DNA from: an uncultured Gammaproteobacteria bacterium
GTDB lineage: Bacteria; Patescibacteriota; Microgenomatia; CAYSOG01
Direction of reading: 5' to 3'
Assembly: GCA_964432675.1 (NCBI GenBank)
Contig: CAYSOG010000001.1
Location: 4,523 to 68,522 of the forward strand
DNA: 64,000 nt
Positions 6,022-26,526 of the stretch are shown here, piece by piece; the stretch's first letter is position 1, and the number at the start of each line of letters is the position of its first letter. A model generated the notes under the pieces. That model searched no databases and was not told the origin of the DNA. It worked only from the letters and a program-made list of their open reading frames with translations. Position numbers and translations under genes: made by a program.

Positions 6022-7179
6022 ATGGAACCTACTAGTCAAGGCATAACTAAGCAGAAGTTTTTTATTCCAGCGCTGTTACTCTTTTTGTTTGTGGGTAGCT
6101 TTTTAGCCTCATTTTTTTACTTCAGAACTAATTCTTCGGCGAAGATGGTAGGTATGACCAGTGATGGGACAGTAAAGAGTAAGGCCGGTGACATGGTATG
6201 CCCATTAAACGGCGTTAAATATGACAAGGCAAGCCAAGATGTTTGGGAAAAGCGTCGGCCACTAGGTATTATGGTAGAAAACGAAATCGAGGCTCGGCCG
6301 CAATATGGTCTGTCAAAAGCTGATGTCATTTACGAAGCTGTGGCTGAAGGTGGTATTACTCGGTTTATGGCTGTTTACCTTTGCCAAGGTGCCGATAAAG
6401 TCGAACCAATCCGCAGTGCCAGAACATACTTTTTAGATTGGATTTCAGAATATGATGGCCTCTATGCTCATGTTGGCGGTGCCGGCACGTCGGGTCCGGC
6501 TGACGCCCTTGGCCAGATTGACCGCTATGGCATTAAAGATTTAAATCAATTTAGTATCGGTTTTCCAACATTTGAGCGTGACCAAGACCGTATAAGCCGT
6601 GGCTTGCCAATCGAGCATACCATGTTTACATCTACCCAGAAATTATGGGATTACGCACTTTCAAAATTCGGTTGGGGAGCAAAAGATAAAAACGGTGTCC
6701 CCTGGGATGCAAACTTTGTACCCTGGAAATTTATTGATGACGCAGCACTTAACCAGCGTGGTTCAATGACAACTGCCACCATACCATTCTGGGACAAAGG
6801 CCCTGGTGACTATCGAGTTGAGTGGACATATGATAAAACCCAGAACATCTATAAGCGTGCCAATGGCGGCATTGACAGCATCGATGAACTTACCAAGCAA
6901 CAGCTTACAGCAAAAGATGTTGTTGTCCAATTTATGGACGAAGAGCATGCGAATGACGGCTACCCAGGCAACCAACACTTAGTGTACGGTACGATTGGTA
7001 GTGGGACTGCGATCATTCTTGAAAATGGCAATGTAATCAACGGTACTTGGCAGAAGAAAGACCGTCTGGCAAAAACAAAGTACTTTGACGCTTCGGGTAA
7101 TGAGGTCAGTTTTGTACGAGGACAAATTTGGATTGAGACTGTACCAACGTACAATAAAAGTTTAGTAACGACAAAATAA
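6022..7179 (+). CDS. DUF3048 domain-containing secreted/membrane-anchored protein
   Basis: N-terminal TM anchor. RPLGIMVENEIEARPQYGLSKADVIYEAVAEGGITRFMAVY is the characteristic DUF3048 core. Confidence 0.7.
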   Translation: MEPTSQGITKQKFFIPALLLFLFVGSFLASFFYFRTNSSAKMVGMTSDGTVKSKAGDMVCPLNGVKYDKASQDVWEKRRPLGIMVENEIEARPQYGLSKADVIYEAVAEGGITRFMAVYLCQGADKVEPIRSARTYFLDWISEYDGLYAHVGGAGTSGPADALGQIDRYGIKDLNQFSIGFPTFERDQDRISRGLPIEHTMFTSTQKLWDYALSKFGWGAKDKNGVPWDANFVPWKFIDDAALNQRGSMTTATIPFWDKGPGDYRVEWTYDKTQNIYKRANGGIDSIDELTKQQLTAKDVVVQFMDEEHANDGYPGNQHLVYGTIGSGTAIILENGNVINGTWQKKDRLAKTKYFDASGNEVSFVRGQIWIETVPTYNKSLVTTK

Positions 7180-7190
7180 AAAACATTGTT

Positions 7191-7235
7191 GGCCAGGAAA
7201 GGTTGCTAGATTGGCCTGGTTTGTTATAAAATTTG
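7191..7235 (+). terminator. Weak intrinsic terminator downstream of DUF3048 gene
   Basis: ccagg...cctgg stem extended by G-U pairs, followed by ttgttataaaattt. Confidence 0.35.
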
Positions 7236-7351
7236 CGTAGAATTAATACTACGTATCAAAGCAACCGAATGTATATCTGCCTAGTAAAGGAAAGTTTATA
7301 TCGCAAGGGTATAAGAAATTACCTCCTGTCTCCTTGAGGTAGATATATAAA

Positions 7352-7933
7352 ATGCTTGAAGACATTATCATCTCAAAAGTCCGTATCAAATTGCTTACCC
7401 TCTTTTTGCGTAATCCAGGGAAACTCTTCCATGTTCGGGAAATTACCAGACGTACCGAAGAAGAAATTAATGCCGTTCGGAGAGAATTGGCTAGAATGGA
7501 AAAATCGGGTATGGTAGCTTCCGAGTGGCGGCAGAATAGACGGTTTTACCACTTTCGTAAAGATTATCCTCTTTATCCAGAACTAGCGGCATTGATTGCC
7601 AAAACTGTTGGCCTTGGTGCTGAAATTATTAAAAACAGAGCCAAATTAGGCAAATTACGCTACGTTTTTATGACTTCTGCGTTCGCGAAAGGGACAACGC
7701 GCCAGCAGGGTAATATCGATGTATTGCTTGTGGGGAATGTCGTATTACCCGAACTCACGGCACTTGTGAAAGAGGAAGAACTGCGTTTAGACGAGGAAAT
7801 TAATTATACCGTCATGGCAGATGATGAGTTCACCTTTCGCAAACAGCGACGAGACCCGTTTGTCATGAGTATATTAAGTCTGCCCCGTGTCATGTTAATT
7901 GGTGATGAGGATGAAATGTTAAAACCAGTTTAA
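7352..7933 (+). CDS. Winged-helix transcriptional regulator fused to minimal nucleotidyltransferase-like domain
   Basis: N-terminal wHTH-like segment (KVRIKLLTLFLRNPGKLFHVREITRRTEEEINAVRRELARMEKSGMV). The C-terminal part has a G[ST]..x(8-10)..DxD-like pattern (AKGTTRQQGNIDVLLVG). Confidence 0.5.
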   Translation: MLEDIIISKVRIKLLTLFLRNPGKLFHVREITRRTEEEINAVRRELARMEKSGMVASEWRQNRRFYHFRKDYPLYPELAALIAKTVGLGAEIIKNRAKLGKLRYVFMTSAFAKGTTRQQGNIDVLLVGNVVLPELTALVKEEELRLDEEINYTVMADDEFTFRKQRRDPFVMSILSLPRVMLIGDEDEMLKPV

Positions 7934-7999
7934 AAATCTTCCCTTTTTGTCTATTCCTTTGCCCATCTGTTACAATATAACTAGATCAAAGAATATCAT

Positions 8000-9343
8000 A
8001 TGCGATTACCTTTTTTGAAACGCACACTGCCACAACTAAAAATCAGATTTGGCCTGCTGGTTATTATTTGTTTGGCGGCCCTTGCCTTCTATCTTGATTT
8101 ACCAAAAATACCGCTCAAATTTTCCTTTGGTTCTATCTCTATTAATAGGACTATCGAACATCCAAGCCTTAAGCTTGGTAGTTTTAATCGGGATTTAAAC
8201 CCCAAATTGGGTCTTGATTTAAAAGGTGGTACGCATATTGTCTTGGAGGCTGATATGAGCAGCGTACCAAAAGACCAACGTGACCAAGCGCTTGCTTTTA
8301 CACGCAACGTTATCGAGCGTCGCGTCAATTTGTTTGGTGTGTCTGAGCCGGTTGTGCAAACTTCCAAAAGTGGCAATACTTACCGGATAGTCGTTGAGCT
8401 TGCTGGTATTAAAGATATTAACGAAGCAGTTGCCGTTATTGGTAAGACCGCAAAACTCGAATTTCGGCAATTTACCAACACAAACCAGACGATGGTGGCA
8501 CCTGATTCAACAGTCGATAATACTGAACCGACTGGACTAGACGGTTCTGACCTCGCGAGTGCTGAGGTAATTTTCGATCCGCAAACCTCAGCGCCAGAAG
8601 TCGGTTTTAAAGTTGCCAGCGGCAGTCAAGATAAATTTTATAAGGTAACACAATCATTACTTGGTAAGCCTATGATTATTGTGTTAGATGGCCAGCCAGT
8701 ATCCGCACCAACAGTGCAGGCGGCTATTCGTGATAGTGGCCAGATTACAGGAAATTTTACCTTGCAGCAAGCCAAGGACTTAGCGCTTGAGCTGAATGCT
8801 GGATCACTCAAAGCACCAGTTAAAATTGTCAGCCAAAGCAATGTTGGTGCAACACTCGGAAGCGATTCGATTAAGAAAAGTATTATAGCAGGCGCAGTTG
8901 GTGGAGCAATTATCGCGTTCTTTATGATCGCTAACTACGGCCTTTTAGGTGTTATTGCCGATTTGGCATTGATTGTTTATACTTTGGTAACATTTGCAGT
9001 CTTTAAATTTATTCCGATTACATTAACGCTTGCTGGTATTGCAGGTTTTATTCTTTCAATCGGCATGGCGGTTGATGCTAATATCTTGATTTTCGAGCGG
9101 ATGAAAGAGGAAGTCCGCTGGGGAAAATCTCAAACGGCTGCCTTGACCTTAGGTTTCGACCGGGCGATGAGTTCCATTAAGGCATCAAATATTTCAACAC
9201 TTATTACAACAGCCATTTTGTATACCTTTGGGACAGGACTAGTGAGAGGGTTTGCACTAACCCTAGCAATCGGCGTATTATTGTCAATGTTTTCAGCAAT
9301 TACTGTTACAAAGACCTTTTTAAAAGCTCTGTATAGGATATAA
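8000..9343 (+). CDS. secD: Protein translocase subunit SecD
   Basis: LGLDLKGGTHIVLEAD...NVIERRVNLFGVSEPVVQ....LEFRQ, plus a six-TM C-terminal domain. Typical SecD. Confidence 0.9.
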   Translation: MRLPFLKRTLPQLKIRFGLLVIICLAALAFYLDLPKIPLKFSFGSISINRTIEHPSLKLGSFNRDLNPKLGLDLKGGTHIVLEADMSSVPKDQRDQALAFTRNVIERRVNLFGVSEPVVQTSKSGNTYRIVVELAGIKDINEAVAVIGKTAKLEFRQFTNTNQTMVAPDSTVDNTEPTGLDGSDLASAEVIFDPQTSAPEVGFKVASGSQDKFYKVTQSLLGKPMIIVLDGQPVSAPTVQAAIRDSGQITGNFTLQQAKDLALELNAGSLKAPVKIVSQSNVGATLGSDSIKKSIIAGAVGGAIIAFFMIANYGLLGVIADLALIVYTLVTFAVFKFIPITLTLAGIAGFILSIGMAVDANILIFERMKEEVRWGKSQTAALTLGFDRAMSSIKASNISTLITTAILYTFGTGLVRGFALTLAIGVLLSMFSAITVTKTFLKALYRI

Positions 9344-9432
9344 TAAAAACAAGTGCTAAAAATTAAAGTTTGAAAATCAAATATAAAGATTTGTTTAGTT
9401 TTAAATAGTATTACCTGTCCTAACTGTCATTC

Positions 9433-10434
9433 GTGTTACTTTATATGGATCAACCAGGGGAATTAATACAACCAAAGCCACCTGAGAAACAAGAACAGAA
9501 AGATCTGTTTGATATTCTTAGCCAAATGCTGCAACAAAAACAGCAGCAGGTAGTCCATGATTTTAAGGCCAAACATAAACAGTTTAACCAATGGTTGACT
9601 GCCAATAACCATCAATTAGTGAAAGTTCAAGGGCACTTGGTGCGATTTGTCTTAGCGAGTGGTTTTTCTGCATCGATCATTATTGCGACAGCGTTACCAG
9701 GAGGGGGGGTGCAAGCGTCACCGCCGGCACCGACACCGATTATCCAACAGACACCGTTTCCTGAAGCGTCTAGCTTACCAGAATTTTCTGGCAAATCATT
9801 ACATGATGTTATTGCCTCATATAAGAGTTGGCCTAGTACGCAGCTCGAAACTGAGCTAGGCATAAGGATTTCTAATGCCACACATATTCAATCTACCGCC
9901 GTCCTTGATGGGCACAAAATGAATAAAAGCGTGGGATTAATGGGCGCTGAACAGCACCTCTACCGTTACCCTGGCGATACGTTAGAAGACCATGTTAAAA
10001 CACCTGACGAACGTGCGATGTATTACGGTTCAGGGATTGCACCAGGATTAGGTGCATGGGGTTACTTTGCCCCGTCAAAGGCAAAGTTCACTGCCGACGA
10101 TGAAGCACGCGAAAAATGGTATGTTGTTGCCCAAACATTCCTTTTCCCTGGCTATTATTCTGACCGCAGTTATCGTGACTGGTTAAAGTATCGAAAAGTC
10201 TTAGTCTATAATCCGCAAAATGGCCAAGCTGTTGTCGGCGATATTGGTGACTCTGGCCCGGCAACCTGGACTGGTAAAACCTACGGTGGTTCTCCCGAAG
10301 TTATGCAGGCTTTAGGTCTTGGTGGCGGACCAAGAAAGGGCGAAGTCATTGTCCTTTTCATTGACGACCCAAATAATACGGTGCCATTGGGTCCGGTAAC
10401 GATGCCAACGCCGCCGCCAACGACAGGGAATTAA
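9433..10434 (+). CDS. Hypothetical membrane-anchored protein with Pro-rich linker and conserved C-terminal domain
   Basis: Gln-rich N-terminus, one TM helix and a PPAPTP linker. The C-terminal domain (YGGSPEVMQALGLGGGPRKGEVIVLFIDDPNN) has unknown function. Confidence 0.45.
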   Translation: MLLYMDQPGELIQPKPPEKQEQKDLFDILSQMLQQKQQQVVHDFKAKHKQFNQWLTANNHQLVKVQGHLVRFVLASGFSASIIIATALPGGGVQASPPAPTPIIQQTPFPEASSLPEFSGKSLHDVIASYKSWPSTQLETELGIRISNATHIQSTAVLDGHKMNKSVGLMGAEQHLYRYPGDTLEDHVKTPDERAMYYGSGIAPGLGAWGYFAPSKAKFTADDEAREKWYVVAQTFLFPGYYSDRSYRDWLKYRKVLVYNPQNGQAVVGDIGDSGPATWTGKTYGGSPEVMQALGLGGGPRKGEVIVLFIDDPNNTVPLGPVTMPTPPPTTGN

Positions 10435-10435
10435 T

Positions 10436-10777
10436 ATGAAAATATCAAAAAGTTTACTCTCAGAAGAATCATTAATGAAGGAATTGGGATTAACCGATTT
10501 CGACCCAAATCACCAGGAAGAACTATTTACCCTGATGATGGACATTCTTGAAATTAAAGTGCTTGATTGTGTTCTTTCAGAATTATCGGAAGAAGACAAA
10601 CGGCAGTTTACTGTTATCTTACTTGGAGAAAATACCGATGCTGCTAAAGAATTCTTGGATCGACGGATAAAAGGTTTAGATAAAAAGCTTGAACAAGTGG
10701 TGCAAGCTTTTAAAGAAGAATTAGTTGCAGACGTTTTGGAAGCCAAAAAAGAATTATTAAAGAAGCAGAAGAGTTGA
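10436..10777 (+). CDS. Small hypothetical helical protein
   Basis: 113-aa charged, coiled-coil-like ORF abutting the upstream gene's stop (start 1 nt after it), which suggests translational coupling. Confidence 0.45.
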   Translation: MKISKSLLSEESLMKELGLTDFDPNHQEELFTLMMDILEIKVLDCVLSELSEEDKRQFTVILLGENTDAAKEFLDRRIKGLDKKLEQVVQAFKEELVADVLEAKKELLKKQKS

Positions 10778-10819
10778 GCTGTTTAACCGACGTGTTTAGG
10801 AAGAATTTACCGCTGTCAT

Positions 10820-12439
10820 ATGGATAGAGAAAGCCATGATTTGGCCCGCCGCATAGAAACTAATAGTATTACCTTCGAAAGCCCTGACCATTTAGCAGTC
10901 AAAACTATTCCCACCTTAGAGCGATATTTATTGGAACTCAAGCTAAAAGGCAATGAACAATACCAAGCTGGTTACCAGCTAATGGTTGATGTCGCAAGAG
11001 ATATAAGTGAAAAGCATGGCATGGCATTGTTAGTCGGGGGTGCTGTGCGTGACATGATTCAAGGGAACCTAGTGAAAGATTTTGATTTGGAAGTTTATGA
11101 CCTTAGTGTTGACGAGCTAGCGGCAGTTGCCAAAAGGTATGGCAAAGTTTCTGAAGTTGGTAAGTCATTTGGCATTCTAAAAGTCGCGACAAGTTCGGGT
11201 ATTGATTTGGATTTATCACAGCCTCGCGAGGACTCTAAAATTGGTGAGGGTCACAAAGGATTTGCTGTAAGAACTGACCAGTCAATGTTAATACGCGAAG
11301 CTTGCCAAAGACGTGACTTTACGATTAATGCTATGGCAGCCGACCCCATAAGTGGCAAAATATATGACCCATATGGCGGCTTTGAGGATTTAGAAGAAGG
11401 TGTACTGCGCGTTGTTGACCCTGTAACGTTTGTTGAAGACCCACTAAGAGTAATGCGGGGCGTGCAGTTTGCCGGCCGGTTTAATTTAACGCCTGATGCC
11501 AAAACGCTCGAGGTCATGCGCGCATTATCACCAAAACTTACCGAATTACCAAGCGAGCGATTATTTGAAGAATGGAAAAAACTGTTATTAAAATCTGAAA
11601 AGCCTTCTGTAGGCTTGCAGCTTGCCAAAGACGCTGGTGTTTTGGCTGCCGTACACCCTGAATTTCTACCGCTTGAAGAAACTGAGCAAGATCCAAGATG
11701 GCACCCGGAAGGTGATGTATTTGTCCATACAAAATTAGGTTTAGACCAGGCAGCAAAAATTATTCGGCGTGACAATTTTGCTGATAACGAAGCACTAACC
11801 TTAATGCTCGCTATCCTTTGCCATGACTTGGGAAAACCCCAAACCACAAAGCGCGACGAACATGGCCATATTACTGCCCATGGCCATGATGAGGCGGGTG
11901 TTTTACCATCAAAGCAATTTTTACGAACCATTCATGCCGACACTCTGACTAAAGACAAAGTTACCAAATTAGTCGAATATCACATGTGGCCGCATAATAC
12001 ATTCCAAATGTATGGTCGTGGCCAAGACACAACAGATGGTGCGGTACGGAAACTTGCCCATCGCTTATTTCCAGCGACAATTGATGAATTGGCATACTTA
12101 GCAGAAGCTGACCACTCCGGCACCGGGTATTATGTGGGTGAAGACAGTCGACTAGTATTGCCAGTGCATTTTCAGGAAGGAATTTGGTTGCGCCAAAAAG
12201 CATCTGCGCTCAGTGTTGAAAAGGGTAGGCCCCAGCCGGTTATTCGGGGTCAAGATTTGCTATCACTGGGGTTAGAGCCAGGGGCAAAGTTTGGTGAGAT
12301 CATTCGACTTGCCGAGCAATTACATAACGACGACGGTGTATCGAAGGAGGCAATCTTAGCGAGCATAAAAGATGTTTCAAGCACTGAGGAAGCAATTGAT
12401 CGCTTACATAGTCAGGTAGTATCAGTTAGTGCGCTCTAA
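10820..12439 (+). CDS. Class-II tRNA nucleotidyltransferase / poly(A) polymerase family protein with HD domain (paralogue 1, 539 aa)
   Basis: Head domain LLVGGAVRDMIQGNLVKDFDLEV....RRDFTINAMA, then an HD domain (LAILCHDLGKPQT). Long C-terminal extension. Confidence 0.85.
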   Translation: MDRESHDLARRIETNSITFESPDHLAVKTIPTLERYLLELKLKGNEQYQAGYQLMVDVARDISEKHGMALLVGGAVRDMIQGNLVKDFDLEVYDLSVDELAAVAKRYGKVSEVGKSFGILKVATSSGIDLDLSQPREDSKIGEGHKGFAVRTDQSMLIREACQRRDFTINAMAADPISGKIYDPYGGFEDLEEGVLRVVDPVTFVEDPLRVMRGVQFAGRFNLTPDAKTLEVMRALSPKLTELPSERLFEEWKKLLLKSEKPSVGLQLAKDAGVLAAVHPEFLPLEETEQDPRWHPEGDVFVHTKLGLDQAAKIIRRDNFADNEALTLMLAILCHDLGKPQTTKRDEHGHITAHGHDEAGVLPSKQFLRTIHADTLTKDKVTKLVEYHMWPHNTFQMYGRGQDTTDGAVRKLAHRLFPATIDELAYLAEADHSGTGYYVGEDSRLVLPVHFQEGIWLRQKASALSVEKGRPQPVIRGQDLLSLGLEPGAKFGEIIRLAEQLHNDDGVSKEAILASIKDVSSTEEAIDRLHSQVVSVSAL

Positions 12440-12479
12440 GCCTGGCAATAACATACAGGAATATGCTACAATTTGGTCC

Positions 12480-13457
12480 ATGAATATAATCGGTAAAAAA
12501 TGGTGGTACTTTGTGCTTTCTGGGCTTATTATTGTGCCAGGACTTATTTCACTACTCCTTTTTGGTTTAAAACTTGGTATTGATTACACTGGTGGCACCC
12601 TGCTTGAGTTAAAGTTCCACGATACTTCTAAGCTCCCACAATCTAATACCGAACTCGCTCAAGTTCTGACGCAAGACGGTGTTCAAGTTGCCTCAATTTC
12701 AAATTCAGGACCGGATACTTATTTGTTTCGGCTAAAGGCGATCGACAACGTTAAAAACGAACAGATCAAGTCGGATTTGTCTCAAAAATTTGGTAATGTC
12801 GAAGAATTACAGTACGATACTGTCGGCCCAACAATCTCTGGTACGCTCAGTTGGAAAACATTCTTGTATCCTATACTTTATCCACTCAAAGTGTTTGGTA
12901 TTTTTATTCCTGATGATAATATAACATTGGCGTTTTCAGCTGTATTTTGGGCCTCGTTAGGTATTTTAGCGTACATTGCCTGGTCATTCCGTAAAATGCC
13001 GAAACCAGCTTCTTCTTGGCGCTTTGGCGTGGCAGCGATTGCAGCATTGTTACATGATGTTCTTGTTGTTATAGGCATATTCTCTATATTAGGGAAGGTG
13101 TTTAATGTTGAAATTGATGCACTATTTATAACGGCACTTTTAACTGTGATGGGCTTCTCGGTCCACGATACCATTGTAGTATTCGACAGAATTCGAGAAA
13201 ATTTGTATAAGTATTCTAGTCAATCGTTTGCGACTGTCGTTAATACTTCTATGATCCAAACCCTTGGCCGGTCATTAACAACATCGTTGACCGTGATCTT
13301 TGTCCTTTTGGCCTTACTGCTTTTTGGTGGCACTTCAATTCGCTGGTTTATTGTCGCTTTGCTAGTTGGTATTATTTCGGGAACGTATTCCTCAATCTTT
13401 AATGCTTCACCAATCTTGGTTGTCTGGCAAGATTATCTCCAAAACAAAAGAAAATAA
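12480..13457 (+). CDS. secF: Protein translocase subunit SecF
   Basis: Start trimmed to MNIIGKKWWYFVLSGLIIVPGLISLLLFGLKLGIDYTGG, which aligns with the SecF N-terminus. Six TM helices. An upstream GTG at 12429 is an alternative start. Confidence 0.88.
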   Translation: MNIIGKKWWYFVLSGLIIVPGLISLLLFGLKLGIDYTGGTLLELKFHDTSKLPQSNTELAQVLTQDGVQVASISNSGPDTYLFRLKAIDNVKNEQIKSDLSQKFGNVEELQYDTVGPTISGTLSWKTFLYPILYPLKVFGIFIPDDNITLAFSAVFWASLGILAYIAWSFRKMPKPASSWRFGVAAIAALLHDVLVVIGIFSILGKVFNVEIDALFITALLTVMGFSVHDTIVVFDRIRENLYKYSSQSFATVVNTSMIQTLGRSLTTSLTVIFVLLALLLFGGTSIRWFIVALLVGIISGTYSSIFNASPILVVWQDYLQNKRK

Positions 13458-13465
13458 CCCTATAG

Positions 13466-13494
13466 TTGATACATCGCTAATTTTTTGTTATACT
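13466..13494 (+). promoter_or_regulatory. Sigma70-like promoter (TTGATA-17 bp-TATACT) for the ORFan cassette
   Basis: TTGATA at 13466-13471, a 17-nt spacer and TATACT at 13489-13494, leaving a roughly 100-nt leader before GTG 13602 (RBS AAAGGA). Confidence 0.55.
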
Positions 13495-13601
13495 TATACC
13501 GTCCTGCTGTGTGTCTGCGTCATAAACGCTGTAACTCGTCGCCGTACCTTCACACAAAAGCTGCGATTATTCGGTAACCGAAGAGCCGAAAGGAATTAAC
13601 C

Positions 13602-13940
13602 GTGAAAGTACTTCATTTGTTTGAGCCTGGTGCAAGCGAGCTTACGCTTGAGGCGTCACAGGTATTAAGCCAACATCTTTTAGATACTGTTGAATTGCAT
13701 GAGCACCAACTGGGTACTGACGAAATGCCACTGACGAGTACTATTATGCGAAGCATATGTCAAAGCCATAGGCCGCATTTTATCGTTCTTGATGCCGAGT
13801 ACCAAGTTGACAATAAGTTTATGCATGATTGTTTGCATCGGCAAAGCGATTTTGGCGTAATAAAAGTACTTTGGTACCTGGCAGAAACTGCCGACGGTAC
13901 CGGCCATCGTTTTTTGCATTTTCCACCAGGTAGGGGCTAA
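13602..13940 (+). CDS. Hypothetical protein (ORFan cassette gene 1), GTG start
   Basis: 112-aa ORF with RBS AAAGGAAT 8 nt upstream. His/Cys-containing, no recognisable family. Confidence 0.45.
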   Translation: MKVLHLFEPGASELTLEASQVLSQHLLDTVELHEHQLGTDEMPLTSTIMRSICQSHRPHFIVLDAEYQVDNKFMHDCLHRQSDFGVIKVLWYLAETADGTGHRFLHFPPGRG

Positions 13941-13996
13941 CTGATCTCAGAATATCACTCTACAAAAATATTCTAGGGGAGAAAGGATCGAGTGCC

Positions 13997-14491
13997 ATGC
14001 CGCAAGAAGCAGTCTGCGACATTACCTTAAGCGACAAGTATATTTCCCATGAAGTTTGGTACGCTCTCTTTATTGAGTATCATTTCTATCATGTCGATCT
14101 TGGGCATCGGATGGAAATGAAAGGCGATGTACCGGAACGCTTTACAATCGATATAAAGAAATTACTTCATACGGTTAGCTGGAGTGCTATAAATCCTGGA
14201 CAGATGAGTATTGATACCTATTCTGATGTCCATGTCTTTGACCATGGTACGGTTTATACCGTCGTAACATCGCGCGGCGAGTGGCTACCGCTCACAGAGA
14301 AGCTCTATCACCGATATCGTCGTGCGGGATACGGGGAGAGTAACAATACGACATACCGGCTGCTCCGAAATATCGATGAGCGTGGTAAACTCCTTGACTA
14401 TGAATTGCAGCCTTTTGAGGTTGAAGAGGAGCAAAAAGTAAGCCTAGCGGCCTTTGAGTTGGAACGGGAGCCCACCCTTTCACACGACTGA
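13997..14491 (+). CDS. Hypothetical protein (ORFan cassette gene 2)
   Basis: 164 aa. RBS GGGGAGAAAGGA 9 nt upstream. Acidic C-terminus. No recognisable family. Confidence 0.45.
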   Translation: MPQEAVCDITLSDKYISHEVWYALFIEYHFYHVDLGHRMEMKGDVPERFTIDIKKLLHTVSWSAINPGQMSIDTYSDVHVFDHGTVYTVVTSRGEWLPLTEKLYHRYRRAGYGESNNTTYRLLRNIDERGKLLDYELQPFEVEEEQKVSLAAFELEREPTLSHD

Positions 14492-14529
14492 CAACACCGT
14501 AGCATACTTTTAATTCCTCGTTTGAACAC

Positions 14530-14566
14530 GGCGGCCGCTGGATTTCCAGTGAGCCGCCTATTTTTT
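14530..14566 (+). terminator. Intrinsic terminator after cassette gene 2
   Basis: GGCGGC...GCCGCC stem followed by TATTTTTTGG. Confidence 0.55.
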
Positions 14567-14591
14567 GGCATCTTCTACATTAATCCCATAG

Positions 14592-14620
14592 TTGCGACCA
14601 TGCCCATTGTTTGCTATAAT
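14592..14620 (+). promoter_or_regulatory. Sigma70-like promoter (TTGCGA-17 bp-TATAAT) for cassette gene 3
   Basis: Consensus-quality -35/-10 with a 17-bp spacer. The roughly 120-nt leader contains a strong-SD 5-codon mini-ORF (ATG 14691, MQLFH*). Confidence 0.6.
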
Positions 14621-14742
14621 ATCACTTGCCCAAATAGTAGTGGCTCTTTAAAACCATCTGATTGCCGAAAATAGTTTGAGGAGGTTGCGATATGCAATTA
14701 TTCCATTAGGTAGCTTAGTTGCTATCAAAGGAGAGTTGCCCG

Positions 14743-15582
14743 TTGGCTGTTAAACTTACCAAAGGCGGTCTTGTCGACGAGAACGATAAAGAAACGAAAC
14801 TCGTTGACCCTACATTGGGGAATGTGCTGCGATATTGGCGTTACGTTATCGATATTGACCCGGGATATACGATCGGCGATTTAGTCAATTTACTCAGTCA
14901 TGTTGTAGATGAACATCATGTCCTTTCAGCTTTGCTCCATTGTGACCTTGCAGCTTACCTCGAAGCCGCACGGCAATCGGTCCAAGCCAAAGCTGCAATA
15001 GCAGTAGCCGACGAAATTATTCCAGCCGAACCTGATAGTAGTGATGACATAGACTATATCGAAGTTTACAACCACGCTGATATCGACCATTTCGTTCCCG
15101 GTAAAAAAGTCGGCAATCGTCGAACCATGGGTGAATTTACGCCGCCATATACAATTAACCGGAATTGTCATGGCGTTGGCCCTTGGGCTGAACCATATGA
15201 AGGATATAATCAAGAGTTTCCTAATCACCCTGCAACGACTGGCTATGCAATAGAATATACCCCAATTGGGGAACTGCTCGATTACGAAATTCGGTACGAT
15301 CCGAAAATCGAATTTGAAAAAAACTACCTAAAAGGCGATATTGCATTCGCCACCGAAATCAATATTACCTTTGGTGAACTCATCGAAGCAGTGTTTTGGG
15401 AAATCGGTTGGTTTGGAACACCAGAAGGTACGCTTGAAGCAACTGATAATCTTTATGTACTCCAAGATGATGTAAAAAAGATCCAAGATGGTACACTCGA
15501 AACGCACAGTTTCGATGAACTTCTTAAAGAGACATTTGTACTCGATGATGAACTTGATGATGACGCGGCTGACAAGAGCTAA
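14743..15582 (+). CDS. Hypothetical acidic protein (ORFan cassette gene 3)
   Basis: Open frame from 14719. Likely TTG start at 14743, 6 nt after RBS AAAGGAGAG. The 280-aa product has a very acidic C-terminus (DDELDDDAADKS) and no recognisable family. Confidence 0.45.
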   Translation: MAVKLTKGGLVDENDKETKLVDPTLGNVLRYWRYVIDIDPGYTIGDLVNLLSHVVDEHHVLSALLHCDLAAYLEAARQSVQAKAAIAVADEIIPAEPDSSDDIDYIEVYNHADIDHFVPGKKVGNRRTMGEFTPPYTINRNCHGVGPWAEPYEGYNQEFPNHPATTGYAIEYTPIGELLDYEIRYDPKIEFEKNYLKGDIAFATEINITFGELIEAVFWEIGWFGTPEGTLEATDNLYVLQDDVKKIQDGTLETHSFDELLKETFVLDDELDDDAADKS

Positions 15583-15602
15583 CAGTTCTTCAGTATAGCC
15601 AT

Positions 15603-15630
15603 GGCCCCGAATTATTCGGGGCCTTTTTTT
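15603..15630 (+). terminator. Strong intrinsic terminator (GGCCCCGAA-tta-TTCGGGGCC + T7)
   Basis: Perfect 9-bp GC-rich stem with a 3-nt loop and TTTTTTT. The T-run overlaps the stop codon of the convergent CCA-type gene. Confidence 0.8.
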
Positions 15631-16999
15631 ATGCTGAACTATTAATTTCGTGTATTCTCTTTATTAAATAGTCACGATTGTTCTTGGACATATCCTCATC
15701 GACTTCTTCAAATAATTTTTGCAGGGTTTGGCCGATCTTTGGTCCTGGTTTTATATTTAGTTCTTTCATAATGTCATTTCCATTAACTGCAAGATCCTTA
15801 ACCGCAAACGCTGGATGTAGTTCCTTATCAATCCGCTCGCGGAATTTTTTAAGCCGCCAACTTTCTTCGCGCTCTTTGGGGATGCCGCTACCTAACCTGT
15901 CACCAATACGTAAATCAATCATATCCTGGATATTGTCCAATCCGACGTTGCGGATGAAACGGCGGACAGCACTATCAGTCTGAAACTCATCCACACTAAA
16001 TTGGTGCCAGCGAACGAGGGATACCAGTTTGTCCCGGTCTTTTTTTGACAGATGTAATCGGTTTGCAATATTACGGGCAATATTAGCACCGACGACTTCA
16101 TGGTTGTAGAACGTTGGGTTACCACGGGCGTCACGGCCTAATACTTGCGGCTTGCCAACGTCGTGCAGTAAGGCTGCAAAGCGGACGAGTGGGTCTTTGC
16201 TTGGCGTTGTCTTAAGTGATAAAAAGCAATGTGTGCCGACATCATAAATATGGTGCCGGTTAGGTCCAATTTGTTCTATCCCAAAGCATTGCTCTAACTC
16301 TGGTAAAATTTCTGCCAATAACCCGGTATTACGTAAAATCATAAAGCCGTCATACGGAAAATCGGATGCCAAAATTTTGAATAGTTCATCCCTAATTCTT
16401 TCACCCGAAATATGGGTAATCAGCACGACGTTTTTTTGGATTGCCGCAAAAGTTTTTTCCTCAATTTGAAAAGAAAGCTGTGCCGCAAACCGAACGGCGC
16501 GGAGCATCCGCAGTGCATCTTCATTAAACCGCTCATGTGCATCGCCGACGGCACGAATAAGTTTTCGTTCAAGATCTTCCTGTCCGTCAAAAGGGTCGAT
16601 AATATTTGAAACTTGAAGCTTGAAGCTTGAAACGTCCACTGCCATTGCGTTGATGGTAAAATCACGGCGGGTTAAGTCTTCGTCAATAGTTTTACCCCAA
16701 GTAACTTCGTCGGGATGACGTTTATTCGAGTATCCTTTTTCGCTGCGAAAAGTTGTAATCTCGACAATGCCAAAATTTTCTGTTGGAATACCGACAGTGC
16801 CATATATGTTATCGTAAAAAGCATTTGGAAATAATTTTTGGATTTGGTCTGGTATGGCGTTTGTCGTGAAGTCAAAATCTTTAGCTTCTTTTTTAAGCAA
16901 AAGATCACGGACACTTCCCCCAACAAGATATATTAAATAACCAGCATCGACAATTTTTTCACTGATTGTTTCAACTTCCTTTGGCAACTCTAAATTCAT
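15629..16999 (-). CDS. Class-II CCA tRNA nucleotidyltransferase family protein with HD domain (paralogue 2, 456 aa)
   Basis: LIYLVGGSVRDLLLKKEAKDFDFTT....RRDFTINAMAVD head, then an HD domain (AALLHDVGKPQ). Confidence 0.85.
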   Translation of the reverse strand: MNLELPKEVETISEKIVDAGYLIYLVGGSVRDLLLKKEAKDFDFTTNAIPDQIQKLFPNAFYDNIYGTVGIPTENFGIVEITTFRSEKGYSNKRHPDEVTWGKTIDEDLTRRDFTINAMAVDVSSFKLQVSNIIDPFDGQEDLERKLIRAVGDAHERFNEDALRMLRAVRFAAQLSFQIEEKTFAAIQKNVVLITHISGERIRDELFKILASDFPYDGFMILRNTGLLAEILPELEQCFGIEQIGPNRHHIYDVGTHCFLSLKTTPSKDPLVRFAALLHDVGKPQVLGRDARGNPTFYNHEVVGANIARNIANRLHLSKKDRDKLVSLVRWHQFSVDEFQTDSAVRRFIRNVGLDNIQDMIDLRIGDRLGSGIPKEREESWRLKKFRERIDKELHPAFAVKDLAVNGNDIMKELNIKPGPKIGQTLQKLFEEVDEDMSKNNRDYLIKRIHEINSSA

Positions 17000-17041: not shown

Positions 17042-18760
17042 ATGCAGCAGAAAGTTTGGGAAATTAACAATAAATGGAAAGCGGAAGGTGGGAAGCGGAA
17101 AGTTGATGAGATTGTCAACGAGTTACTCATCCAAAGAGGTGTTAGGACAAAAAAGCAGAAAGACACCTTTCTTCATCCCAAGCTTGAATCGCTGATAGAC
17201 GCTATACCATTCCCGCAGATGGACAAAGCACTCAAACGGATAGAAAAAGCCATCAAATCGAAGGAAAAGATTGCTATTTTTTCCGATTACGATGCTGATG
17301 GTATTTGTGCAACCGCCATCCTTTGGGAAACAATTCACGAATTAGGTGGCGACGTTATGCCATACGTACCCGACCGTATTGCAGAAGGCTACGGCCTCTC
17401 TGTTTATGCCGCAAAAAAGTTGGCCGAAGAAAAGATTAATCTCATCATCACGGTCGATAACGGTATTACTGCGGTCGAGGCAGTCAATACCGCTAACGCG
17501 CTTGGTGTTGACATCATTATCACCGACCATCACCAAAAACCAACTGTTCTACCAAAACCGTATGCATTTGTTTGGAGTGATAAAATTTGTGGCACTGTTG
17601 TTGCCTGGTATTTGGCAAAAGCACTTACCAAGCACAAAGATCTAAAGTCTCACCTTGAATTAGCAGCGCTTGCAACGATCGCGGACGTTATGCCTCTGGT
17701 TGATGTTAATCGGACGATTGTTAAGTTTGGCTTAGAAGAGTTGAATAAGACGAAGCGTGTCGGATTGATAGCGTTGTTTAACGAAGCGGGGCTTGAACTA
17801 GGAAAAGTCGGCTGGTGGGAAATTGGACATGTTATTGCCCCAAGGCTTAACGCCATGGGCCGATTAGAAAATGCCATGGACTCACTTCGCCTTTTGTGTA
17901 CAACTAATCCGCTTAAAGCAAAGTCGTTAGCGATGACATTGGCGAGAACCAATACTGAGCGCCAAAAGTTGACCGAAAAGATGGTTACCGATGCTCGGCT
18001 ATTATATAACCAGGATTTTACAGTTGGCGTGTTAGCTCATGAAACCTGGCATGAGGGAGTTGTTGGGCTTGTTGCAGGTAGGATGACAGAGGCCTTTTAT
18101 CGCCCAATGATAGCAATCGCTAAAGGCGAAGAGTTTTCCAAAGGCAGCGCCAGGTCAATTCCAGGATTTAATATTATTGAAGCCTTGCGAAGTCTTGATG
18201 GTGTATTTGAAAACATTGGCGGGCACCCAATGGCAGCAGGCTTTACTATTCGAACCGAAAATATTGCCAAACTTGAAAAGCAACTCTTGAAGGTTGCCGA
18301 AAAACAATTAACCAATGGCCTTTTGCAACGCAAACTGCGTGTTGATCTAGAATTATCAATAAGCGAATTAACAAGGTCACTTTATGATGCGCTTGAGCAA
18401 CTTTCTCCTTTTGGCAATGGTAATCCTGAACCAATTTTTGTAACGCGCCGACTAGAAGTTGAAGAGGTAAAGAAAGTTGGTAGCACTGGTAAGCATATTA
18501 AACTTCGTGTCTGTCAAGCTGATGATGGCGATCTACTAAATGGTGAAGAAGTAGAAGCTGATGTGACCGATTTACAAAATTATTTCAGCTTACCACCGAA
18601 ACCTTTTTTCGAAGCTATCGGTTTTGGTATGGGGGAATTATTAAAACATTTGCGGCCAGGGCAGATTATTGATATAGCTTATACTCTCTCACTAAATACC
18701 TGGCATGACGTTAGCCGCATCGAATTGAAAATTAAAGATATGCGGTTTTCAGATCAATAA
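17042..18760 (+). CDS. recJ: Single-stranded-DNA-specific exonuclease RecJ
   Basis: DHH motifs (IAIFSDYDADGICATAIL; IITDHHQ) and the DHHA1 region (GGHPMAAGFT). Confidence 0.9.
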   Translation: MQQKVWEINNKWKAEGGKRKVDEIVNELLIQRGVRTKKQKDTFLHPKLESLIDAIPFPQMDKALKRIEKAIKSKEKIAIFSDYDADGICATAILWETIHELGGDVMPYVPDRIAEGYGLSVYAAKKLAEEKINLIITVDNGITAVEAVNTANALGVDIIITDHHQKPTVLPKPYAFVWSDKICGTVVAWYLAKALTKHKDLKSHLELAALATIADVMPLVDVNRTIVKFGLEELNKTKRVGLIALFNEAGLELGKVGWWEIGHVIAPRLNAMGRLENAMDSLRLLCTTNPLKAKSLAMTLARTNTERQKLTEKMVTDARLLYNQDFTVGVLAHETWHEGVVGLVAGRMTEAFYRPMIAIAKGEEFSKGSARSIPGFNIIEALRSLDGVFENIGGHPMAAGFTIRTENIAKLEKQLLKVAEKQLTNGLLQRKLRVDLELSISELTRSLYDALEQLSPFGNGNPEPIFVTRRLEVEEVKKVGSTGKHIKLRVCQADDGDLLNGEEVEADVTDLQNYFSLPPKPFFEAIGFGMGELLKHLRPGQIIDIAYTLSLNTWHDVSRIELKIKDMRFSDQ

Positions 18761-19233
18761 TCAATATATTCTATATCGTTTTCAGAGGAAGTAGGTTCAG
18801 GTTTTGTGGCAGTCATCTGATCGTAAAGTGATACGGGTTTTGCGCCTAATTCACCAACGACAATTTCGGTTGTCGTATTTTTTGCATTTACGTCTTCTGC
18901 CTCACGTTCGAAGCGCCATTTCCAGTAGGCATCTACCATTTTTAGCTGGCGTCTTTTTGTATCCGGCTGCCTTTGTTGGACACGCATCCGCAAGGCCGAA
19001 TGATAAAGCTTTTTAGCAAGGGCAAATTGCATTTCTATCTCATCTGGTTCTTGTGAAGCATTCAATTCATCGATACGCCCTTGGATGTATGCTTCCGGCA
19101 ACATGAGCTCTGATCCGACTGACCGTAGCCAATCGGTAGACTCATGTTTTATAAATCCCACAACATCAGGATTTGTAAGCCTTTCGACTGTAGTAGTATT
19201 TTCAGGTTTTGCAGCCACCATGTTCTCCATCAA
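18754..19233 (-). CDS. Hypothetical protein
   Basis: 159-aa ORF. A terminator-like hairpin plus T6 sits immediately upstream of its start. Confidence 0.45.
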   Translation of the reverse strand: MMENMVAAKPENTTTVERLTNPDVVGFIKHESTDWLRSVGSELMLPEAYIQGRIDELNASQEPDEIEMQFALAKKLYHSALRMRVQQRQPDTKRRQLKMVDAYWKWRFEREAEDVNAKNTTTEIVVGELGAKPVSLYDQMTATKPEPTSSENDIEYIDY

Positions 19234-26455: not shown

Positions 26456-26526
26456 TGCGGGATCGTCTAATGGTAGGACACATGCCTCTGGAGCATGGTA
26501 TCTAGGTCCGAATCCTAGTCCCGCAG
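26456..26526 (+). tRNA. tRNA-Gln (anticodon CUG), no encoded 3' CCA
   Basis: Manual fold: acceptor TGCGGGA/TCCCGCA with U1-A72 and G73 (typical tRNA-Gln identity). D-arm GTCT/GGAC. Anticodon stem CATGC/GCATG with loop CUCUGGA (CUG at 34-36). T-arm CTAGG-TCCGAAT-CCTAG. 3' end followed by CTCG. Confidence 0.7.

Follow-up and report, generated by a model that had tools for sequence, protein, structure and literature searches.

Chromosomal hot spots, or plastic slots, in which accessory genes are carried between conserved core genes, constitute a general concept. Ocr and ArdA are acidic DNA-mimic anti-restriction proteins, and in ermC/cat-type attenuation and translational coupling, translation of a leader peptide exerts control via sequestration of a Shine-Dalgarno (SD) sequence. 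To our knowledge, almost nothing has been established experimentally about gene regulation in the candidate phyla radiation (CPR) group of bacteria. A further point of reference is provided by phage "morons," which are independent accessory transcription units (PMC3594210). Here we describe positions 13458 to 15630 of a 64-kb stretch of contig CAYSOG010000001.1 (the window), an interval between secF and a CCA-type nucleotidyltransferase gene (cca) that contains three genes, designated orfA, orfB, and orfC. A sequence-only reading of this DNA had proposed a single cassette of three ORFan genes, inserted into a housekeeping block and possibly acting in defense or toxin immunity or derived from a phage. 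Our analysis favors another interpretation, to which we assign a probability of roughly 0.55: the interval contains two autonomous units in a plastic secF-cca slot of a Microgenomates-type CPR bacterium, and orfC is a family member probably gated by an upstream open reading frame (uORF), likely encodes a binding protein, and most likely represents an old acquisition.

Two putative transcription units in the interval

The features identified in the interval were as follows, with the evidence for each in parentheses.

13466 to 13494, forward strand: P1, promoter-like site TTGATA-17-TATACT with a TG extended -10 (consensus scan; 9 nt past the secF stop)
13602 to 13940, forward strand: orfA, 112 amino acids (aa), GTG start, SD sequence AAAGGA, isoelectric point (pI) 5.7 (open reading frame [ORF] call and SD sequence; homologue undetected)
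13997 to 14491, forward strand: orfB, 164 aa, ATG start, SD sequence GGGGAGAAAGGA, pI 5.2 (ORF call and SD sequence; homologue undetected)
14530 to 14566, forward strand: T1, intrinsic terminator, 12-pair stem at 14530 to 14558 with one bulged base, followed by UAUUUUUU (fold of -24 kcal/mol, z score -2.8)
14592 to 14620, forward strand: P2, promoter-like site TTGCGA-17-TATAAT with a TG extended -10 (consensus scan)
14678 to 14709, forward strand: uORF, SD sequence GAGGAGG at 14678 to 14684, 7-nt spacer, and ATG CAA TTA TTC CAT TAG at 14692 to 14709, encoding MQLFH (sequence)
14694 to 14739, forward strand: predicted leader hairpin (fold of -17.4 kcal/mol, z score -3.4; 2 of 200 shuffled sequences as stable)
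14743 to 15582, forward strand: orfC, 279 aa, TTG start 10 nt past AAGGAG, pI 4.3, acidic tail (ORF call and homologue N termini)
15603 to 15630, forward strand: T2, intrinsic terminator, GGCCCCGAA-TTA-TTCGGGGCC followed by T7 (fold of -27.5 kcal/mol, z score -6.3)

The sequence-only reading had listed two near-consensus promoters (at 13466 and 14592), two intrinsic terminators (at 14530 and 15603), and genes of 112, 164, and about 280 aa, and all of these were recovered, each gene with an SD sequence. For orfC, a longer alternative of 287 aa begins at 14719, and the NCBI product has 279 aa. The N termini of orfC homologues (M..V.LT..GL) line up with the residues MAVKLTKGGL that follow from the TTG start at 14743. 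P1 and P2 each matched 10 of 12 consensus positions, giving a top score that was tied with one site within cca, and they fall precisely in the two intergenic spacers; the region held 16 promoter-like sites versus 8.4 ± 2.6 in shuffled sequences. T1 was overlooked by a simple terminator scan because of its bulged base. The stem of the T2 hairpin (15603 to 15623) comprises 9 bp, 7 of them GC, and the terminator lies between orfC and the convergent cca.

T1 and P2 are both located between orfB and orfC and thus separate orfA-orfB from orfC, indicating two transcription units and not one. Furthermore, neither orfA- nor orfB-like genes were found beside orfC homologues at 30 other loci. The idea of a single three-gene cassette therefore had to be abandoned, and orfA-orfB and orfC are two autonomous putative transcription units that are functionally independent. 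Unit 1 would comprise P1, orfA, orfB, and T1, and unit 2 would comprise P2, a leader of ∼115 nt, orfC, and T2.

Turnover of gene content between secF and cca

A Pfam scan placed SecF on one side of the interval and a PolyA_pol/HD CCA-type nucleotidyltransferase on the other, with secF and cca convergent around the interval and cca on the reverse strand. The order of the block is kept in those relatives that share it and consists of DUF3048, g7352, secD, secF, the gap, cca (reverse strand), recJ, a class II aminoacyl-tRNA synthetase gene, and Peptidase_S11. When the SecF protein of the window was compared with homologues from 185,579 species-representative genomes, identity did not exceed 56%, the top matches being those of Gottesmanbacteria and Levybacteria metagenome-assembled genomes (MAGs), and the CCA enzyme was at most 60 to 62% identical to anything in JGI metagenome contigs. 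Identities this low indicated a poorly sampled CPR lineage of the Microgenomates type as the source of the window; judged from these sequence comparisons, the host is a Microgenomates-type CPR bacterium. A Logan contig (SRR9179560; locus L089) that was assembled independently was 100% identical to positions 13691 to 15900 of the window, and hence the interval is not an assembly artifact.

Slot contents were compared across 37 genome loci having both secF and a full cca, with ∼105 Microgenomates loci examined overall. Among the 37 genome loci, the secF-cca distance ranged from 5 to 6,808 bp and was ≤41 bp in 4 of them; the distance in the window is 2,171 bp. The commonest occupant was yqeY (26 of 37 loci). 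This usual slot gene of relatives is not present anywhere in the 64-kb window, and no remnants of yqeY or of other usual slot genes were detected there. Other occupants in relatives were cysS, metK, Ham1, NUDIX, an ABC transporter pair, DUF2079, a methyltransferase, an APH kinase, and several unannotated genes. The closest relatives carry a Phd/YefM-plus-ParE toxin-antitoxin (TA) pair in the slot (L001, positions 10673 to 11739; L002, positions 8783 to 9849), preceded in both by a gene for an unannotated 168-aa protein, and an IS200-type Y1 transposase gene occupies the slot in two further loci (L019, positions 10954 to 11625; L033, positions 10936 to 11607). As housekeeping genes are among the occupants, the slot reflects general rearrangement plus insertion of mobile DNA.

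Homologues of orfA, orfB, and orfC were absent from the slot in all 37 genome loci and in the metagenome loci of relatives. With flanks that were syntenic at ∼60 loci of relatives and turnover of the slot content, the proposed insertion into a housekeeping block between secF and cca was borne out at the depth of gene order and gene family. The three genes show neither conserved synteny among relatives nor a match to a well-known family, the two outcomes that the sequence-only reading had named as counting against it. Overall, the slot is an ordinary accessory-gene slot that is plastic among relatives, and the view that the interval holds lineage-specific accessory genes within a conserved housekeeping block is supported.

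Assignment of orfC to an unnamed protein family

A HMMER scan of 1.84 billion cluster representatives detected 114 representatives other than orfC at an E value of ≤1e-3, 24 of them at ≤1e-10, and the best phmmer match spanned orfC residues 2 to 258. A word-indexed search of 5.8 billion proteins had returned orfC itself only, missing homologues with up to 44% identity. Because every one of the orfC homologues was missed, a finding of no homologue for short divergent proteins in such a search does not amount to ORFan status. No member of the orfC family scored above threshold against Pfam, PHROG, NCBIfam, or PADLOC models, and the earlier statement that none of the three window proteins has an assignable family motif was upheld in these collections. 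The family is acidic: the median pI is 4.62, and 78% of members have a pI of <5. The C terminus of orfC is acidic as claimed, with 11 Asp or Glu residues among the last 30 residues, and its codon score of 0.385 was the best of six frames. These sequence comparisons place orfC in an unnamed family of acidic alpha/beta proteins of ∼250 aa.

Structural modeling with AlphaFold2 and the family alignment produced an orfC model with a predicted local distance difference test score (pLDDT) of 90.2 and a predicted template-modeling score of 0.84, in comparison to a useless model (pLDDT of 32) from the single sequence. In the model, a beta-hairpin and a helical bundle at the N terminus are followed by an acidic linker, then by a beta-sheet domain in which there are two long hairpins, and finally by three helices at the C terminus. 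A Foldseek search of the PDB gave a best E value of 1.2 and hence no match at ≤0.001, and a search of BFVD gave two uncharacterized viral proteins (E values of 6e-11 and 7e-8). The family is defined by two alignments, A1 and the viral set A4; the A1 profile matched no PDB sequence. Six positions (G144, G146, P174, E220, G225, and P227) were each conserved in 80 to 94% of 137 sequences, orfC having all six, and the family carries the motifs xHGxG and FWEIxFxGxP. As the conserved positions are mostly Gly, Pro, or hydrophobic with a single acidic residue (E220), a scaffold or binding protein is favored over an enzyme. The orfC product would most likely be a cytoplasmic nonenzymatic binding protein, for example, one that inhibits or mimics a partner handling nucleic acids or nucleotides.

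The nearest homologues of orfC (33 to 44% identity) are encoded on contigs of 64 to 72% GC from unrelated bacteria, and the remoter ones form a deeper branch in large uncultivated viruses. Cellular carriers include a Longimicrobium MAG and high-GC soil MAGs. In the Longimicrobium sp. MAG (GCA_036377595.1; L117, positions 7001 to 8820), two overlapping paralogues of 306 and 300 aa are arranged in tandem amid TPR/PatA_N, Roadblock/LC7, and chemotaxis genes. Contigs L115/L116 and L118 have a phage-like gene architecture; a check of the phage status of L115 by use of its 504-aa protein gave no matches. In IMG/VR, a scan based on the more divergent family half detected 25 viral loci, 9 of them on contigs of >200 kb, and the family hidden Markov model matched an ORF in 24 of the 25 loci with E values of 1e-22 to 3e-43. 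An hhalign comparison of A1 with the viral set A4 gave a probability of 100% and an E value of 2.6e-42 over 228 columns. Recurrent neighbors in the viral loci were genes for the ribonucleotide reductase large subunit, dUTPase, a DNA helicase, and HNH endonucleases; no single conserved neighbor of orfC-family genes was found in the viral or other loci. Searches with tblastn gave nothing for orfC in GenBank phages and PLSDB plasmids and nothing for four other family members in GenBank phages.

A candidate uORF and hairpin in the orfC leader

The five-codon mini-ORF with a perfect SD sequence that had been noted in the orfC leader was confirmed, with its ATG at 14692; it shares the orfC frame, with two TAG codons between them. 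In the predicted hairpin, the UUCC of the uORF (14701 to 14704) pairs with GGAG (14730 to 14733) of the orfC SD sequence. Predicted structure was not significant for whole leaders (z score of +0.8 for the orfA leader), with only the local uORF hairpin reaching significance, and a search of the interval with Rfam gave two subthreshold chance matches only. Translation of the uORF would open the hairpin and unmask the orfC SD sequence. The weak TTG start of orfC is probably gated by the uORF, given the perfect SD sequence of the latter and the pairing of its body with the orfC SD sequence in a fold prediction for one sequence. The peptide MQLFH loosely resembles the macrolide-resistance pentapeptide consensus (e.g., MRLFV).

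Properties of orfA and orfB

The description of orfA as rich in His and Cys held for His, which makes up 10 of 112 residues versus 2.1% of the window proteome, and failed for Cys, of which there are only 2 residues. The codon score of orfB (0.225) was the best of six frames and typical of host genes. Homologues were sought by several routes. The word-indexed search detected only self matches for orfA and orfB, no usable match was obtained in Pfam, PHROGs, NCBIfam, or PADLOC, and relaxation to an E value of ≤1 in Pfam and NCBIfam added nothing but a chance-level Peptidase_C1 match (E value of 0.29). Sequence searches of the PDB were negative, IMG/VR scans with both proteins were empty, and tblastn searches of GenBank phages and PLSDB plasmids gave nothing for orfA and chance-level Clp-like matches for orfB (E values of 0.2 to 0.6). 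None of the three genes had a paralogue within the window. In comparisons by hhalign or BLASTP, no relationship was apparent between orfA and orfB or of either protein to the orfC family or the L001 and L002 slot genes, with a probability of 0.1% for orfA against the Phd protein of these two loci.

The ORFan status claimed for all three genes thus stood for orfA and orfB, for which no homologue was found by any route, and fell for orfC. As the word-indexed search had missed every orfC homologue, the negative results for orfA and orfB are no proof that they are true ORFans. Judged from sequence, both products of unit 1 are restricted to the lineage, and the codon usage of their genes is like that of the host. 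The orfA leader also contains a perfect 13-nt palindrome, TTCGGTAACCGAA, at 13570 to 13582, ∼20 nt upstream of the orfA SD sequence, which may represent an operator or form a small hairpin or may have arisen by chance.

Alternative explanations

Several observations weigh against the two-unit interpretation. The coding evidence for orfA is marginal, and P1 and P2 were matched to a sigma70-type consensus, which is no evidence of promoter function in a CPR bacterium. A search of the collections for closer relatives suited to a presence/absence comparison detected none with a housekeeping identity above ∼60%, which leaves gain or loss of the genes undated and provides no orthologous leaders for comparison. 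The binding-protein role of orfC is drawn from charge and conservation pattern only. A neighbor-joining tree placed orfC in a subclade of 21 to 35 members without IMG/VR sequences, the viral family members are only 20 to 25% identical to orfC, and a viral scan with the pattern of the orfC subclade was empty. Finally, a host-like composition and the absence of repeats and an integrase would fit old vertical inheritance just as well.

This last point leads to the alternative that survived best, which we nevertheless consider unlikely: the three are ordinary, vertically inherited, fast-evolving CPR genes, nothing was inserted, and their ORFan appearance results from sparse sampling of the lineage. 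The GC content is flat across the interval (0.42 to 0.48) and like that of the flanks, and the GC content at third codon positions was 0.39 for orfA, 0.47 for orfB, and 0.36 for orfC versus 0.396 ± 0.038 for host genes; a comparison of GC and codon bias with the flanks, as suggested in the sequence-only reading, detected no deviation. Flanking repeats were limited to two short direct repeats at chance level, with no inverted repeats. Neither an integrase nor a recombinase-sized ORF was present in the interval, and the sole tRNA gene is at 26456. A recent insertion is therefore unsupported, and the interval lacks the integrase or transposase, flanking repeats, and tRNA target of an integrative mobile element or genomic island. 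An absence of annotation is the local norm, as no Pfam match was obtained for 5 of the 15 further genes that were scanned from 5.5 to 24.6 kb. ORFans also break up the syntenic block at 10436 to 10777 and 18754 to 19233, the latter indicating that ORFan insertions into the block are recurrent. The sampling limit of ∼60% identity and the failure of the word-indexed search with orfC, which weakens the negative results for orfA and orfB, are likewise in keeping with vertical inheritance. However, the orfC homologues were located in unrelated high-GC bacteria and large viruses and in 0 of the ∼105 Microgenomates loci, and the slot content turns over among relatives. As homologues were found outside Microgenomates loci only, the distribution of orfC is patchy in a way typical of horizontal transfer. 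Under the two-unit interpretation, orfC would most likely be an old horizontal acquisition whose composition is now host-like.

A bolder version, which we regard as improbable, holds that the orfC family has an undescribed fold and serves large viruses as a host-takeover or anti-defense binding protein (e.g., one that mimics or inhibits an enzyme of nucleic acid or nucleotide metabolism), that a copy was captured by a CPR bacterium and placed under uORF gating, and that orfA and orfB form a separate novel lineage-specific two-gene module. The earlier suggestion of a phage-derived module fits the family, which is common to large viruses (the 25 IMG/VR loci), and does not extend to this copy: a viral origin of orfC is unproven because of its subclade without IMG/VR members, the low identity to viral members, and the empty pattern scan.

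The possibility that the interval encodes a TA, toxin-immunity, or anti-phage module, with orfA and orfB as an addiction or defense pair and orfC as a third component or immunity protein, appears very unlikely. The TA pairs and IS200 transposase genes found in the same slot of relatives show that selfish or accessory modules land there, and orfA and orfB are small and codirectional and have P1 and T1 in common. In addition, a C-terminal stretch in 3 of 70 orfC-family members (P0057, residues 383 to 413, and two IMG/VR members) resembled PF09720 (Unstab_antitox; E values of 1e-4 to 2e-3, subthreshold), and orfC residues 230 to 263 gave a weak, subthreshold match to a RelB-like antitoxin model (E value of 0.13). 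These antitoxin-like matches fall below curated cutoffs and cover one short stretch, however, and probably reflect a shared short motif rather than homology. None of the three proteins matched PADLOC, Pfam, NCBIfam, or PHROG models, with zero families matched in PADLOC-DB 2.0 even at an E value of ≤1, and so the proposed defense or toxin-immunity function found no support. Moreover, orfA and orfB are spaced 56 nt apart without overlap, orfC homologues have no conserved partner gene, and orfC would be transcribed separately here.

It is still harder to maintain that orfA is not a real gene and that positions 13458 to 13996 form a long 5' leader or regulatory spacer of orfB. The orfA codon score of 0.118 is near the bottom of the range for training genes (0.230 ± 0.053; minimum, 0.111), an antisense ORF scored 0.09, no orfA homologue was found, and, by a rough estimate, 2.2 kb of DNA with this GC content could contain a 112-codon ORF by chance. 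Against this, the orfA frame scored best of six, its SD sequence is at a proper distance and lies downstream of P1, a 540-bp noncoding gap would be unusual for a compact genome, no Rfam match or significant leader structure was detected, and orfA is annotated as a gene by NCBI.

Recoding of TAG to Gln, by which orfC would start at ATG 14692 and extend to 296 aa, is scarcely credible and was rejected: this ATG has the best SD sequence of the interval and is in the orfC frame across two TAG codons, and a Logan product (P0118; L089, positions 1002 to 1892, equivalent to window positions 14692 to 15582) reads MQLFHQVAQLLSK..., but TAG serves as a stop codon (13 of 63 window ORFs terminate at TAG), family N termini align at TTG 14743 without an upstream extension, and residues 2 to 6 of orfC are within the first beta-strand of the AlphaFold2 model. 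The P0118 product itself is an artifact, being a code-15-type call, with two in-frame TAG codons translated as Gln, on a short contig of a genome in which TAG is a stop codon.

Neighboring genes in the block

In the window, secD (8000 to 9343) and secF (12429 to 13457) are kept apart by three genes. The first (9433 to 10434) encodes a Pro-rich 333-aa protein, the second (10436 to 10777) a 113-aa protein that is weakly DUF5663-like, and the third (10820 to 12439) a second and longer PolyA_pol/HD paralogue of the CCA enzyme (539 aa). The secD and secF genes are adjacent in nearly all of 80 relatives, and a homologue of the 333-aa gene was detected between them only in L037 and L042. The ORFan at 18754 to 19233 (reverse strand; 159 aa) is flanked by recJ and the class II aminoacyl-tRNA synthetase gene, with no Pfam match and no homologue at the locus of any relative.

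Comparison with known systems

The locus represents routine turnover of accessory genes between core genes of a CPR genome, and no new system is indicated. Within it, the unnamed acidic family of orfC, with >110 cluster representatives, 25 viral contigs (many of them from very large viruses), and a confident AlphaFold2 model lacking a fold neighbor in the PDB, is a target for structural and functional studies of large-virus "dark matter." The orfC leader is a compact, testable candidate for a CPR leader in which unmasking of the SD sequence depends on the uORF. The orfC case also demonstrates that a word-indexed result of no homologue can yield a false ORFan call.

Among the described systems, type II TA pairs resemble orfA and orfB, which are two small and putatively cotranscribed genes, and a true TA pair occupies this slot in L001 and L002. 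In contrast to such pairs, orfA and orfB have no toxin or antitoxin signature, are 56 nt apart, and have atypical sizes of 112 and 164 aa. As in core-gene hot spots, the flanks of the slot (secD-secF and cca-recJ) are conserved while 0 to 6.8 kb of content, including TA and IS elements, turns over; unlike such hot spots, the slot in many relatives also carries the housekeeping genes yqeY, cysS, and metK.

For the orfC product, Ocr and ArdA offer a parallel through the strong acidity of the orfC family (median pI of 4.6) and its occurrence in viruses among early or nucleotide-metabolism genes. The family shows no sequence or fold similarity to any PDB entry, these DNA mimics included (for the orfC model, Foldseek against the PDB at an E value of ≤0.001), and the likeness is thus one of charge and genomic context. 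The orfC leader is similar to ermC/cat-type leaders in having a short ORF with a strong SD sequence that is predicted to pair with the downstream SD sequence. It differs in that the uORF has only 5 codons and is accompanied by no recognized set of alternative hairpins or stalling motif.

Phage morons differ from the orfC unit in several respects: orfC lies between chromosomal housekeeping genes with no phage genes adjacent, its composition is the same as that of the flanks, and its subclade was not found in viral contigs. Thus, two of three moron features, prophage location and deviant composition, are absent. Like a moron, however, orfC is a single gene with its own predicted promoter (P2) and terminator (T2), has unrelated neighbors, and belongs to a patchily distributed family that is shared with viruses. 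By analogy, the orfC unit may be best viewed as a moron-like autonomous accessory gene, the closest functional parallel among the systems considered.

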